DNA of 64,000 bases from Bacteroidia bacterium (GTDB lineage Bacteria > Bacteroidota > Bacteroidia > B-17B0 > Aurantibacillaceae): the NCBI GenBank assembly GCA_026414605.1, contig JAOAIP010000019.1:5242-69241 (forward strand), read 5' to 3'. The translations under genes and the position numbers were made by a program. The notes beneath the pieces were generated by a model. That model had not been told where the DNA came from. It ran no database searches and worked only from the letters and a program-made list of their open reading frames with translations. Shown piece by piece: positions 8,826 through 59,298 of this stretch; the stretch's first letter is position 1; the number at the start of each line of letters is the position of its first letter.

Positions 8826-9938
8826 TCAGTGTATTCCTATTCTATAACCAATTCCTGCTTCAATATGATATGCTACGGCAAAATGGGTTTTTAATGAAAA
8901 GTGAGCCACTACATTGTTTTTAAAATAATAACGACAACCAAGACGATGATATAATCTACCGTTTGGAAATTCTTGTGAAGGAGTATACAAATAATAGCCC
9001 ATTTCTAAGATAGGTGTTAAGCGACCAAAATTGTATGCATAACAAAATTTTAGCCCCGTGCTAAATGTTGAGTGAAAATCAAAATGAACTGCATCTGTAT
9101 CACTTTTTCGTAATTCATACGGCAAACTTTGTTCGTAAAATGCATCTATACCTGCCCCCAATTGTTGATTTTGATGGATATTAAAATAATAATTAGCCCC
9201 CACTGTAAGAGCCCAAAGTTTATTGCCCGTTGGAGGTTCTACTTCATTCACACCTATGCCTGTAAAAAATAATAATTCGTGTTTTGTTTTTTTATCTGAT
9301 GTAGAGTCCTGAACAACAGAATAACGTTGAGTTTCTTTCCATTTGTAAGTGATGCCTATAGAGGGATACAAAGTGTTTATGCCTAAGTTAGGAACAGCAA
9401 AACGACAATTACTCACGTGAATAAATGTGATGTTGGGATTAAGATAAAGATGAGGAGAAATTCGCATTTGCCATAAGAAGCGAAATTGAATAAAGGTGTT
9501 CAAATGTGTACCAATGGCGATGTTTTTATGATTGGTTTCGGTATCATAAGGTTTAGTAATGTAAGCCAATCCCCAAGCCATTTTAAGTTTAAATAAGATA
9601 GATTTTTCTTTGTGTGTAAAAGGAAATTCTAAATAGGGAGCCACTGCAATACTACTGCCTATTTTTTCTTTGTTTCCAAGTGTTTCAAAGTTTAAACACA
9701 AACCATAATCGGGAAAATGATTTATCCGATGCCATTTGTAGTATCCTGAAGATGGTCGAAATAAATTAAGTTCTACAAAAAAAGGACGTTCTGCGATGAG
9801 ATTACCAATTTTTGATGAATGTTGAACAACAGAACCATATCCGCCATAGATAGAAAGAGAAGTAAAACCTTGCTGAGCAATACTTGTCATTCCTACAAGG
9901 CATAGGAAAGAAAGAAGTATGTGTTTTATGTGGAACAT
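8826..9938 (-). CDS. acyloxyacyl hydrolase / PagL-like lipid A deacylase family outer membrane protein
   Basis: Signal peptide followed by a beta-barrel-like alternating pattern. SVVQHSSKIG...YYKWHRINHFPDYGLCLNFETLGN resembles the Bacteroidota proteins annotated as acyloxyacyl hydrolase. Called from memory of the family only. Confidence 0.5.
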   Translation of the reverse strand: MFHIKHILLSFLCLVGMTSIAQQGFTSLSIYGGYGSVVQHSSKIGNLIAERPFFVELNLFRPSSGYYKWHRINHFPDYGLCLNFETLGNKEKIGSSIAVAPYLEFPFTHKEKSILFKLKMAWGLAYITKPYDTETNHKNIAIGTHLNTFIQFRFLWQMRISPHLYLNPNITFIHVSNCRFAVPNLGINTLYPSIGITYKWKETQRYSVVQDSTSDKKTKHELLFFTGIGVNEVEPPTGNKLWALTVGANYYFNIHQNQQLGAGIDAFYEQSLPYELRKSDTDAVHFDFHSTFSTGLKFCYAYNFGRLTPILEMGYYLYTPSQEFPNGRLYHRLGCRYYFKNNVVAHFSLKTHFAVAYHIEAGIGYRIGIH

Positions 9939-9950
9939 AGTATATCATTT

Positions 9951-10077
9951 AGTGGAAAGTTATACTCACCCCCTTTTATTAGTAGAAAGTGAAAAGTTTT
10001 AGGTCACTATAACTCTAAATCTCTAAATTGAAAAAGTATTTTCATTACTTTCAACTTTTCACTTTCAACTTTTAACT
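9951..10077. repeat. palindromic NNAAAGT heptad-repeat element, copy A
   Basis: The left arm has AGTGGAAAGT and AGTAGAAAGTGAAAAGT. The right arm ACTTTCAACTTTTCACTTTCAACTTTTAACT is its approximate reverse complement. Related copies lie at 38917-39036 and 59130-59298. Confidence 0.7.
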
Positions 10078-10083
10078 AAATTT

Positions 10084-10199
10084 GCGTGAGGGATGCGAAG
10101 GGCGGCGAAGCCGGTACTGCCCCGAGGAGCGAAGCGACGAGGGGATTACCGAAGCGATAGCGAAGCCCGTAGCAGCCCGACCCGAACACACCACAGCCA
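10084..10199. other. GC-rich island with repeated C-GAA-G cores (unassigned structured element)
   Basis: Exact GCGAAGC at 10105-10111, 10129-10135 and 10160-10166. 6/7 variants at 10095-10101 and 10149-10155. Composition is far more GC-rich than anything else non-coding in the window except the tmRNA. Confidence 0.6.
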
Positions 10200-10205
10200 A
10201 TTGAA

Positions 10206-10240
10206 ATTTTTAAAACGACATTTTTTGTCGTTTTAAAAAT
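10206..10240. repeat. perfect 15-bp-stem palindrome, nested in a 12-bp inverted repeat
   Basis: ATTTTTAAAACGACA (10206-10220), loop TTTTT, TGTCGTTTTAAAAAT (10226-10240). It is bracketed by ACACACCACAGC (10186-10197) and GCTGTGGTGTGT (10274-10285), which are exact reverse complements. Confidence 0.8.
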
Positions 10241-10342
10241 AATGAGATAAAATCATTTACAAAGTTTGGAAATGCTGTGGTGTGTGAGGGGCACGCCCAA
10301 ATAAAAAATGGTATTAAAAGAAGTATCATTCATAAAGTTATT

Positions 10343-10876
10343 TTACTTTAATTGATTAATATCTTTGAACCAAGTGGAGTAAAATAAATAATTTTTTGCA
10401 ATACGTTCTACTTCGCCACTTAATAATTCTGCTGAAATGTCTTTTACTTTTTTTGCGGGGATGCCTGCAAATACGCAATTGTCAGGGACTTCTGTGCCTT
10501 CTAAAACAACAGCCCCTGCTGCGATAATTACATTTTTCCCAATCTTGCAATTGTCCATCACGATTGCCCCCATTCCTATCAACACATTGTCTGAAATGGT
10601 GCATCCGTGAACAATGGCGTTATGTCCAATAGATACATTATTGCCAATATGTGTTTCGGTTTTTTGATACGTGCAATGAATAGTGGCATTATCTTGGATA
10701 TTGACTCTATTTCCTATACGAATTTTATTAACATCACCTCTTACTACAGCATTGAACCAAATACTACACTCATCGCCCATTACTACATCGCCCACAATGG
10801 TAGCATTAGGGGCTACAAAGCAATTTTTACCAAACACAGGAAAAATGCCATTTACAGGATAAATAAAACCACTCAT
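10343..10876 (-). CDS. gamma carbonic anhydrase family / hexapeptide-repeat protein (YrdA/PaaY-like)
   Basis: 177 aa with left-handed beta-helix hexapeptide repeats (IGNNVSIGHNAIVHGCTISDNVLIGMGAIV). The N-terminal VAPNATIVGDVVMGDECSIWFNAVVRGDVN is characteristic. Confidence 0.85.
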   Translation of the reverse strand: MSGFIYPVNGIFPVFGKNCFVAPNATIVGDVVMGDECSIWFNAVVRGDVNKIRIGNRVNIQDNATIHCTYQKTETHIGNNVSIGHNAIVHGCTISDNVLIGMGAIVMDNCKIGKNVIIAAGAVVLEGTEVPDNCVFAGIPAKKVKDISAELLSGEVERIAKNYLFYSTWFKDINQLK

Positions 10877-16171: not shown

Positions 16172-16216
16172 ATAAACAAAATTAATTACATTTGAATTCC
16201 TAAGTTTATAAAAATG

Positions 16217-16570
16217 TGGACCCGCTCCGAATCGAACGGAGGTCCAAGTAAGCAATGAGTAAGTTTTCTACAGGTTTAGTGTTCACTTTCGCATTCGGTA
16301 CAAAGCAAGCAGAACACCGCTTATACTTTGTACCTATCCGCTGGTAGTCATCTTTCGTAGCGGAGTCCGAAAGATGCTCTGTCTCTTTCCGACGCCTTAC
16401 ACCTTTCGCCAGACAGAAGGGCTAAAGGGAAGACGGGCTGCAACTATTAGGCAGCCATTGCGAAGTTAGATTCGCCATTTAAGTTTTGGAGACGAGATTT
16501 AAGAGCATTGTCCCCATTGCTCTACCTGCTTACTTACCCATTGTTCTTACTGTCGATACCTGTCGGGCCC
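16217..16570 (-). ncRNA. ssrA: tmRNA (transfer-messenger RNA)
   Basis: On the reverse strand the 5' GGGCCCG pairs with the 3' CGGGUCC, including the G3-U alanine identity pair. T-arm GGACCUCCGUUCGAUUCGGAGC. Tag reading frame GGC GAA TCT AAC TTC GCA ATG GCT GCC TAA TAG (16476-16444) encodes GESNFAMAA, close to the usual Bacteroidota GExNYALAA tags. CCA is not encoded. Confidence 0.95.
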
Positions 16571-35890: not shown

Positions 35891-36286
35891 TAGGGTTTGG
35901 TGAAAAAGCCAAAATTTACTTTCATAAAAATTAAATTATGGTTTCATAAAAAATCCGCCGAAGGCGGATAAATGTGAATAGCCATCGGTGAAACCGATGG
36001 TAAAAAGCAACATATTTATTTACAACTCTGAAAGGGTTGAATAAAAAACAAAAAATATCTTTTGTAGAACATTCAACCCCTTCGGGGTTGCAAAATTTAT
36101 TACCTTTTTATACCCCCAATTTCATTGGGGGCTATTCACATTTAATCCCTTCGGGATAATTTTTTTAAAATTAAAACAAGTGCAAGGATTTTTAGAAAAT
36201 TTGATAAAACGATTGCACAAAAAAAACAAAAAACGCATGGTAACTTAATAAATATCAATTAATTGAAACTTTTTCATCAAACCCTA
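35891..36286. repeat. 396-bp quasi-palindromic array of six triloop hairpins bounded by 18-bp terminal inverted repeats
   Basis: Terminal inverted repeat TAGGGTTTGGTGAAAAAG (35891-35908) / CTTTTTCATCAAACCCTA (36269-36286), 17 of 18 matching. Hairpins lie at 35953-35969, 35982-36000, 36023-36039, 36074-36090, 36113-36131 and 36144-36156. See findings. Confidence 0.8.
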
Positions 36287-38916: not shown

Positions 38917-39036
38917 ACAAAGAACACATTAGTAAAAAGTGAAAAGTATAAAGTTTGAAAGTAAAAGGAAATATTTTTCAATATAATGATGTAGCGTTTT
39001 AATACTTTTCACTTTTTACTAATTATTTTCTTTGTG
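38917..39036. repeat. palindromic NNAAAGT heptad-repeat element, copy B
   Basis: Left arm AGTAAAAAGTGAAAAGTATAAAGTTTGAAAGT. Right arm AATACTTTTCACTTTTTACT. Outer flanks ACAAAGAACACATT / AATTATTTTCTTTGT. Confidence 0.7.
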
Positions 39037-59129: not shown

Positions 59130-59298
59130 CCACAAAGGATACAAGGATAATAGGTAGTTAAAAGTAGAAAGTAGAAAGTGGAAAGTATAAAGTAAAAAAA
59201 AGGTTGCCACTATAAATTTAAATCATTAAATTACAGAAATACTACTTCTACTTTCAAACTCTTTACTTTCAACTTTTAACTAATTGTGTTCTTTGTGG
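59130..59298. repeat. palindromic NNAAAGT heptad-repeat element, copy C (most complete)
   Basis: The left arm AGTTAAAAGT AGAAAGT AGAAAGT GGAAAGT ATAAAGT has a 7-bp period. The right arm is ACTACTTCTACTTTCAAACTCTTTACTTTCAACTTTTAACT. Outer flanks CCACAAAG (59130) / CTTTGTGG (59291). Confidence 0.75.

Follow-up and report, generated by a model that had tools for sequence, protein, structure and literature searches.

A dispersed, gene-less bacterial repeat with a covarying fold and one-sided mini-hairpin caps, in Bacteroidota and beyond

Introduction

Among described bacterial repeats, the closest to the one studied here are the REP, REPIN and BIME sequences with their RAYT (TnpA-REP) partners (PMC2817692, PMC3733652, PMC8266576). 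A REP unit is an imperfect palindrome of 20-40 bp that is tagged by GTAG or CGTC at one end (PMC3733652). Palindrome-associated transposable elements (PATEs) are non-autonomous derivatives of IS200/IS605 (PMC6006769). High-copy intergenic repeats (REP, BIME, ERIC, Correia) are well studied in Proteobacteria and hardly known in Bacteroidota, Spirochaetota and uncultured lineages. Here, we analysed a GC-rich island that starts at position 10084 of a stretch of 64,000 nucleotides (nt) from contig JAOAIP010000019.1 of a Bacteroidia bacterium (Aurantibacillaceae, assembly GCA_026414605.1). This whole stretch is hereafter referred to as the window, and positions are those of the window unless another sequence is named. 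The island, together with the strand that closes it at 10292-10298, is the core of a dispersed repeat family that carries no gene.

The arms of this core are short hairpins of a type that has been described as DNA. The words GCGNAGC and GCGNNAGC, with any base at N, were defined as 'mini-hairpin DNA' in a 2026 review; they are exceptionally stable as DNA, with a very high melting temperature and poor binding by the single-stranded DNA-binding protein (SSB), and they have been found where primase starts on phages G4, St-1 and alpha3, as well as in ssiA of RSF1010 (PMC13037366).

Results

The source genome (2.48 Mb, 76 contigs) was searched with BLAST, and the query 10075-10300 matched at 62 places. 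When counted as patterns, the 5' motif occurs 66 times, the central 20-mer 51-53 times and the 3' motif, GGGGCACGCC, 62 times. Fifty copies are complete and measure 137-497 nt; many lie at contig ends. A preliminary description, made from the letters of the window, had treated the island as a single local oddity; it is instead a dispersed repeat with about 50-66 copies in its own genome. The copies are modular. Around a constant core, length differences and nested hairpin blocks are found in two of the arms and in the 3' hairpin.

The structure was built from single-sequence folds, which gave a seed model, and from a rebuilt model, R2, based on 32 real matches. Two sequences of the seed alignment carried one added loop base to keep the columns; R2 and all counts come from real sequences only. 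The alignments support one common predicted fold, in which a rod of helices P1 to P4 joins both ends of the element, followed by a junction with one to three variable arms and by a 3' hairpin, P8. Across the 32 sequences, 97.2% of the pair cells hold standard pairs, and both sides have changed in 14 of the 26 pairs. None of 500 column shuffles reached the observed values, and pairing fell to 23-50% when the partners were slid by 1-3 columns. Helices P2 to P4 and their joiners are near-invariant, with pairs kept at 97-99%, and the word GTAG is internal, within CCCGTAGCAG. All five pairs of P1 covary across genomes, the versions being GCGUG/CACGC, GGCUU/AAGCC, GCGUU/AACGC, GCGCC/GGCGC and CGCCC/GGGCG. 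In a viral subfamily P1 reads UUGCGC/GUGCAA, which shows that the UU and AA flanking P1 in the main family belong to the stem. Folding of 10082-10302 on both strands, which the preliminary description had proposed, found the segment far more stable than its shuffles, with z-scores of -8.45 (DNA, plus strand), -7.83 (DNA, minus strand) and -7.80 (RNA, plus strand).

A Saprospiraceae metagenome-assembled genome (MAG) contains divergent relatives with the same architecture and with altered P2 (GGU/ACC) and P3 (CCU/AGG). From their sequences, these relatives suggest that the family may be part of a larger superfamily, where covariation extends to the helices that are invariant elsewhere.

Nearly every arm of the fold is capped by GCGNAGC or GCGNNAGC, and the caps are confined almost entirely to one strand. 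In 40 copies from other genomes, these words were counted 99 times on the plus strand and once on the minus strand (shuffles: mean 9, maximum 20), and in the 50 copies of the source genome 173 times against 3. The loops GTTA, GTCA and GATA fit the GNNA (G...A) rule of DNA loops and not the GNRA rule of RNA. Furthermore, the paired columns hold 7 G.U cells and 8 A.C cells; since G.U is no commoner than A.C, the alignment is without the wobble signature of an RNA. The one-sided caps, the DNA-type loops, the wobble counts and the strand packaged by an inovirus (see below) favour a role of the element as folded single-stranded DNA.

Compact copies in other genomes measure 86-140 nt. A congeneric MAG has 18 copies of 108-141 nt, which run from GCGTGAGGG... 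to ...GGGGCACGCCC. The 20-mer CCCGTAGCAGCCCGACCCGA, which lies in the 3' half of the rod, was scanned against one genome per species, and its exact form recovered copies from four phyla. The carriers are Bacteroidia, Flavobacteriaceae and Saprospiraceae MAGs, a Leptonemataceae chromosome, a contig binned as Chthoniobacterales and the Thiothrix fructosivorans plasmid pTfr153. With strict filters applied, the element was present in 19 of the 401 Bacteroidota genomes sampled and in 11 of 180 genera. For each genome, 150 candidates were scored, and the covariance model accepted 126 of those from the Leptonemataceae chromosome. It accepted at least 148 from a Bacteroidia MAG of 3.3 Mb and at least 85 from a Saprospiraceae MAG, together with 9 from a Flavobacteriaceae MAG and 4 from Thiothrix. 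Matches of the 20-mer in Arthrobacter and in an actinomycete MAG were not accepted by the model and were set aside as chance. The Chthoniobacterales-binned contig (JAOAAX010000044.1, coverage 522) has a copy whose nested blocks are nearly identical to those of copies in the source genome. Judged by this likeness, it may be a mis-binned Bacteroidia contig and not evidence for Verrucomicrobiota.

No match was found in 50,697 sequenced phages, and 72,556 plasmids gave matches only in Thiothrix. Two Thiothrix plasmids carry the element at 3-4 places each, and a copy in pTfr153 lies between the rep and parAB genes. In IMG/VR, 8 contigs have a full match. One of them is a complete inovirus provirus with, in order, a Rep_trans initiator, a gpV-type single-stranded DNA-binding protein, the element, a coat-B-like protein and a Zot-type assembly ATPase. 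The position is shared by the elements of two related inoviruses, in which two of the hairpins show compensatory changes. The inovirus element stands in the gene sense, which is the packaged single strand. In other viral contigs, the element is beside integrase genes or HTH_36 replication-type genes. Within IMGVR_UViG_3300025250_000020 (1750-1930), a small hydrophobic open reading frame (ORF) starts at the gpV stop codon (TGATG overlap) and ends inside the element (...VAVAIGMWRGSLPRTRDERVANP), so that conservation in the 5' half of the inovirus element comes partly from coding.

The search of Rfam 15 at the gathering threshold found only the tmRNA in the window; nothing relevant was obtained for 9900-10400 at E values up to 10 or for six loci with compact copies at E values up to 1. 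No Rfam family matches the island, a possibility that the preliminary description had left open. ARAGORN gave no tRNA-like gene, in line with the earlier failure to fold the island as a tRNA, and a full-text literature search with words of the core sequence returned no relevant paper. We could not find the family described in Rfam or in the searchable literature.

The element appears to enter its sites without duplicating the target. In 39 copies the longest flank match was 5.44, against 5.30 +/- 0.17 in controls. A site about 35 nt downstream of the tmRNA 3' end holds a 108-nt copy in the congener and is empty in the source genome; the flanks of this empty site are too diverged to fix the exact ends of the element. 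The tmRNA gene itself lies at 16214-16570 of the window on the minus strand (131.8 bits, tag GESNFAMAA).

The neighbourhood of the copies was examined in the MAG CAZBPK. In 28 of its 37 copies, the downstream neighbour is on the opposite strand (p=0.003), with its stop codon mostly 4-26 nt away. The copy in the window has a similar setting, with its 3' end facing the stop codon of a gamma-carbonic-anhydrase-like (gamma-CA-like) gene at a distance of 45 nt (10343). The flanks in CAZBPK are TAW on the 5' side and AAAT on the 3' side, and AAAT is the consensus after the core in nearly all genomes (flanks of 39 copies from other genomes and 37 of one MAG). A small hairpin of variable sequence is found 4-8 nt upstream of 16 of the 37 CAZBPK copies, compared with 22 of 148 control windows, and 7 of these 16 hairpins resemble terminators of the opposite-strand gene. 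Such terminator-like hairpins suggest that the element may settle between a stop codon and its terminator.

Close pairs of copies are a feature of the Leptonemataceae chromosome. All 12 pairs are inverted (p=0.0005), 8 of them tail-to-tail at 27-78 nt and 4 head-to-head at 19-24 nt. No doublets were found in the source genome.

The copy in the window is a composite, and its parts are listed in Table 1. Within 9964-10308, coverage by own-genome BLAST is 25-180 matches; outside these limits it is 1, and the flanking genes are unique. Full-length paralogues on contigs C37, C51 and C44 align from ACTCACC to CACGCCCAAAT. Both flanking genes are on the minus strand, as had been reported. In a comparison of orthologous gaps, the gene order beside the gamma-CA-like gene was not conserved in congeners.

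Table 1 Features of the composite repeat and its flanking genes in the window.
Feature	Position	Strand	Basis or remark
PagL-like gene	8826-9938	minus	flank of the gap
Hexapeptide-repeat, gamma-CA-like gene	10343-10876	minus	flank of the gap
Whole composite repeat: left motif, heptad hairpin, GC core, A-rich tail	9964-10308	plus	own-genome BLAST and paralogue alignment
Left terminal motif ACTCACCCCCTTTTATTAG	9964-9982	plus	kept in 13/14 aligned copies; leftward sequence unrelated among copies
Heptad-repeat hairpin: (GAAAGTN)n arm, variable loop, (NACTTTC)n arm	9976-10075	plus	inverted repeat
Core start: UU and P1 5' strand GCGTG	10082-10088	plus	pairs with CACGC 10292-10296 in DNA and RNA folds
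5' strands of P2 (GGG), P3 (TGC) and P4 (GGGC), A bulge, GAA side of 3x3 internal loop	10090-10103	plus	models R1 and R2
Arm P5 GGC-GAA-GCC, first GCGAAGC mini-hairpin	10104-10112	plus	optional in the family
Variable arm P6 (GGTAC-T-GCCCC ... GGGG-ATT-ACC), tip is the second GCGAAGC (10129-10135)	10113-10150	plus	paralogue variants
Mini-hairpin P7 GCGATAGC (GC-GNNA-GC)	10154-10161	plus	near-universal among copies; loops GAAA, GAGA, GATA and others
3' strands of P4, P3 and P2 with joiner; includes the invariant 20-mer (10166-10185)	10165-10185	plus	alignments
P8 5' strand: CCC, tandem GA, lineage-specific extension ACACACCACAGC	10181-10197	plus	comparison with compact P8
AT-rich insert at P8 tip, with perfect 15-bp palindrome 10206-10240	10198-10273	plus	own-genome subfamily only
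P8 3' strand (GCTGTGGTGTGT-GA-GGG), linker G, P1 3' strand CACGC (10292-10296), CC	10274-10298	plus	DNA and RNA folds
A-rich tail AAATAAAAAA	10299-10308	plus	paralogue similarity stops at 10304-10308

All sequence features given in the preliminary description are present at their positions, although several take on another meaning in the family fold. The island has 67% G+C in 10100-10199, against 32% in the genome. Exact GCGAAGC is found at 10105, 10129 and 10160 (4 matches in the whole window, 1.44 expected), with the near-copies GCGAAGG at 10095 and CCGAAGC at 10149. Also present are the CCCC..GGGG fold at 10120-10144 and the palindrome, which has a 15-bp stem with arms at 10206-10220 and 10226-10240. 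In the family fold, the third GCGAAGC is not a separate hairpin, and its bases are divided among the P7 3' strand, a GAA joiner and the first part of the P4 3' strand. The GTGAGGG-type words CGTGAGGG at 10085 and TGTGAGGG at 10283 had been read as the bounds of the island, a role that belongs instead to the closing stem of GCGTG at 10084 and CACGC at 10292. Likewise, the feature does not end at 10291, because the closing strand occupies 10292-10296 and an A-rich tail continues to about 10308. The 12-nt segments ACACACCACAGC (10186-10197) and GCTGTGGTGTGT (10274-10285) are perfect complements. The 3' hairpin of the congener is short (CCC-GA-GC-loop-GC-GA-GGG), and for this reason the long stem made by these two segments, together with the AT palindrome, extends a conserved 3' hairpin in one lineage only and is not an outer inverted repeat in its own right.

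The arms vary among copies in ways that keep their pairing. The length variants GGCGAAGCC and GCGGCGAGCGAAGCGAGCCGC of P5 maintain it, and P5 is missing in Flavobacteriaceae-type and Thiothrix-type copies. The stem of P6 has the versions CCCCG/CGAGGGG, CCCTG/CGAAGGG, CCTCGCC/GGCGAGG and CCTTGTGGC/GCCACAAGG in paralogues, and P6 is a site of nested insertion in longer copies. Compact P8 has the form CCC-GA-GC-loop-GC-GA-GGG or CCC-GAA-GGG. In the source genome the P8 extension covaries with its partner, as seen by eye in examples such as ACACAC.../...GTGTGT and GCCCAC.../...GTGGGC. The AT-rich insert of P8 is found in about 40 copies of the source genome, and neither in the compact P8 forms there nor in any other genome examined.

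In the source genome, the 5' neighbour of the core is one of three small repeats, namely a heptad hairpin, a two-hairpin 'GAATAGCC' block or an element with the ends ACTCACCCCC and GGGGGTGAGT. In the window copy, a heptad hairpin is fused 5' of the core and an AT-rich hairpin is inserted in P8. The heptad hairpin, whose arms at 9976-9998 and 10053-10075 are 87% complementary, is a separate repeat family with 127 right arms and about 45 solo copies in the genome. The window has three such hairpins (9976-10075, 38917-39036 and 59130-59298), and the number of heptads varies among copies. A conserved TGTGTTCTTTGTGGTAAAATATAA block usually comes after the hairpin in solo copies; in composites, AATTT and then the GC core come next.

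The two-hairpin block (GCCCC-GAA-GGGGC, TTAATGTGAATAGCC, CCACCAAC-loop-GTTGGTGG) was found at 11 loci (for example C13:4676, C23:100767 and C48:85713, given as contig and position), always directly 5' of the core. Its layout is that of the end modules of an element at 35891-36286 of the window, in a genome without a Y1 transposase. The third repeat, with inverted ends ACTCACCCCC ... GGGGGTGAGT, lies just 5' of many cores (for example C48:14152-14663, C33:6005, C69:1321 and C6:110-173). Ahead of it stands an incomplete second core 5' end of varying length (GCGTGA, GCGTGAGGGATG or GCGTGAGGGATGCGGAG), which in sequence looks like a variable-length duplication or a repeated insertion into the same core strand. 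Moreover, nested hairpin blocks of the form CGTCATTGCGAG...CTTCGTTCGCAATGACG occupy the loop tips of P6 and P8 in many copies (for example C69:83780-84101 and C33:6208-6704), the window copy not being one of them. These blocks resemble the CGTC-tagged REPs of Di Nocera et al. (PMC3733652), and they yield spurious ORFs with motifs such as FVRNDE.

Discussion

The explanation to which we give about an even chance is that the family is an undescribed, REP-like and non-autonomous repeat, which acts as folded single-stranded DNA, has its ends juxtaposed by the fold and settles at gene ends without target duplication. We infer that the intermediate is single-stranded, that it is cut at the base of P1 and that an enzyme acts in trans. 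When the plus strand is exposed, the fold would bring both ends together at the foot of P1, where the enzyme would cut and rejoin the DNA. In this way the element would be relocated, or a copy of it placed, in short gaps rich in A/T where genes end, with no duplication of the target. Once inserted, it would be mostly a passenger, forming a very stable structure in the 3' untranslated region (UTR) and tolerating further hairpin insertions at its loop tips only.

A number of observations weigh against this explanation. Both strands fold almost equally well with nearest-neighbour parameters, and RNA parameters yield the same fold. The exact ends of the element are defined only by the family alignment, as no precise empty site was found. 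The orientation of the neighbouring genes differs among genomes; in the source genome both neighbours lie on the same strand as the element in 22 cases and both on the opposite strand in 11, which is a weak bias, and the bias in CAZBPK is the reverse. The strands of the Leptonemataceae copies (60 plus and 66 minus, in mixed bins) have no replichore pattern, and the 32:20 distribution in the source genome against GC skew is a weak link; together these argue against a lagging-strand mechanism of the IS608 type. Selfish DNA would not usually keep a 20-mer unchanged across phyla, which hints at recognition by a conserved host factor. Finally, no mobilising enzyme was found. Neither the source genome nor the Leptonemataceae chromosome, with its 126 copies, encodes a member of the Y1 transposase family (PF01797). 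Of 13 other carriers, 10 do have Y1 genes, and in these the element does not flank the gene (carriers G437, G134, G249, G003, G053, G066, G004, G443, G442 and G439).

Several candidates for a mover were considered and rejected. A borderline tblastn match to Y1 (E 0.05) lies inside a TPR protein of 1064 amino acids. A Y1 gene at 1.4 kb from a copy, in carrier G134, is separated from it by cobS and cobC. The Saprospiraceae MAG (G441) has weak divergent relatives, the ones in which P2 and P3 covary, within about 1 kb of all five of its Y1 genes; with 9 matches in 32 kb, this proximity corresponds to the repeat load of the genome and was not taken as a sign of partnership. An all-against-all BLAST of the 2,132 ORFs of the source genome gave no recurrent neighbour gene and no multi-copy transposase or protein gene.

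The first alternative is that the element is a structured RNA, whose fold in the 3' UTR blocks 3'-5' exonucleases or guides processing, as in REP and ERIC, and whose DNA spreads by unrelated means. We consider it unlikely. The strong covariation and the RNA-parameter fold (z -7.8) agree with it, copies lie directly after stop codons, the invariant joiners and tandem G.A motifs are of a kind also common in RNA tertiary motifs, and the inovirus element is in mRNA sense. However, neither the window copy nor the compact copies belong to an Rfam family, the paired columns have no excess of G.U, and the loops are GAA triloops and GNNA with a pyrimidine at position 3 instead of GNRA or UNCG. The transcribed strand would moreover be the plus strand in the source genome and the minus strand in 28 of the 37 CAZBPK copies, and nested insertions are present in tens to hundreds of copies. 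Three readings of the island had been offered in the preliminary description. The single-strand DNA hairpin element and the insertion footprint come close to what the evidence indicates, and the structured non-coding RNA, which has no Rfam match, is less probable.

A second alternative takes the fold for a single-strand initiation signal, recognised as single-stranded DNA by a conserved host enzyme (primase, PriA or RNA polymerase) that would begin the complementary strand there; filamentous phages, plasmids and integrative elements would carry it to this end, with the chromosomal swarms as a secondary spread. In its favour, the element is on the packaged strand after gpV in three related inovirus genomes, with compensatory changes; it has a rep/parAB location in pTfr153 and integrase or HTH_36 neighbours in viral contigs; and its loop words are those of the G4, St-1 and alpha3 primase sites and of RSF1010 ssiA (PMC13037366). 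A host enzyme as partner would also account for the 20-mer that is invariant across phyla. Against these points stand the searches of phages (no match) and plasmids (Thiothrix only), the 3-4 copies in Thiothrix plasmids where one at the origin would be expected, and the coding overlap that contributes to conservation in the inovirus. A chromosome, furthermore, does not need 50-150 priming signals in either orientation. Nor does lying on a packaged strand have a meaning for chromosomal copies, which are found both ways round. We regard this alternative as improbable, and somewhat more so than the structured RNA.

An ordinary transposable element of the miniature inverted-repeat type (MITE) would have P1 to P4 as imperfect terminal inverted repeats for a DDE transposase, and the covariation would come from both ends co-evolving with that enzyme. 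The 5' end GCGTGAGGGATGCGGAGGGC and the reverse-complemented 3' end do have GCGTG and 10 of 14 further bases in common, and the internal length is free. This origin is nevertheless very doubtful, since no target-site duplication was found, the ends are asymmetric with a CC-AAAT tail on one side only, the internal arms P5 to P8 covary too, and the loops are strand-specific (99 against 1). The outermost bases of P1 vary and the inner bases are invariant, which is the reverse of transposase-bound termini, and the source genome is without a multi-copy transposase gene. Lastly, a TnpB/IscB guide-RNA scaffold (omega RNA) or an IS200/IS605 end left as a PATE, which a multi-copy, structured, GC-rich and non-coding element without inverted ends or duplications does resemble, is close to refuted: none of the 14 carriers tested has the TnpB zinc-ribbon family PF07282, PF01797 is missing from two high-copy genomes, the HEARO and IS605-orfB families of Rfam do not match, and cobS and cobC intervene between the element and the sole Y1 gene near a copy.

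The REP-like repeat that we favour has four traits that are unusual for such a family: a complex fold supported by covariation, one-strand caps made of DNA hairpins more stable than any others known, a 20-mer kept unchanged across phyla, and success in genomes without Y1 HUH transposases, the only enzyme family known to move REP-type repeats. These traits make it a test case for how such repeats spread, and the family is a candidate recognition site for a host factor on single-stranded DNA. It also has practical effects, as metagenome assemblies are broken by the repeat, given the many copies at contig ends, and spurious small ORFs are produced in annotation. A bolder conjecture, for which we see only a slim chance, is that the element is a pan-bacterial, strand-specific DNA origami, a module of about 90 nt with GCGNAGC/GCGNNAGC caps whose invariant core would be read on single-stranded DNA by a universal host replication or repair enzyme (for example primase, PriA or topoisomerase). 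If so, filamentous phages, plasmids and integrative elements would use the module as a single-strand start or as an SSB-free landmark, and the same recognition would multiply it in chromosomes without a transposase of its own, in a REP-like and RAYT-free manner.

Comparison with known systems

The element has much in common with REP, REPIN and BIME sequences. It has a high copy number, is extragenic and follows stop codons, forms GC-rich hairpins and has an invariant word that contains GTAG. Like them, it has no target duplication, occurs in short-spaced inverted doublets (12 of 12 in the Leptonemataceae chromosome) and forms mosaics with other small repeats. It differs from REP in being an asymmetric fold of 86-140 nt with 7-8 helices, with its ends paired and GTAG internal. 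In addition, no RAYT is flanked by the element, two high-copy genomes have no Y1 gene, and the invariant 20-mer crosses phyla.

With PATEs, the element shares the lack of inverted ends and of duplication, the reliance on one strand's hairpins and an intermediate presumed to be single-stranded. However, the ends of IS200/IS605 have their own subterminal hairpins, a fixed target word, a strong lagging-strand bias and a need for TnpA, whereas the ends of the present element pair with each other, a strand bias is not seen, and TnpA is absent or unlinked.

The origins of G4, St-1 and alpha3 and the ssiA of RSF1010 (PMC13037366) have the same loop words, GCGAAAGC, GCGTTAGC and the CCGAAGG type. As with these signals, a function is proposed on one folded DNA strand, and the element is found on the packaged strand of a filamentous phage and near rep on a plasmid. 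Unlike the element, which can exceed 100 chromosomal copies, in both orientations, these signals are single-copy parts of origins and have no sequence likeness to the core.

BOX of Streptococcus, ERIC of enterobacteria and Correia/NEMIS of Neisseria are comparable in that they are modular, with optional internal blocks and fixed internal insertion sites, sit in transcribed gaps, and have a mobility that is borrowed or of obscure source. ERIC and Correia differ from the element as near-perfect inverted repeats with TA duplications, and BOX is restricted in lineage. All three are without its fold, its strand-specific mini-hairpin caps and its spread across phyla.

Integron attC sites, which are marked by R''/R' boxes (RYYYAAC ... 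GTTRRRY) and lie in cassette arrays beside intI, were also considered and rejected, as there is no conserved AAC/GTT at the ends of either strand and the copies are single and dispersed between unrelated genes. The element thus falls outside what defines REP/RAYT, the IS200/IS605 PATEs, MITEs, attC and all Rfam families, and in the way it works it is most like REP.

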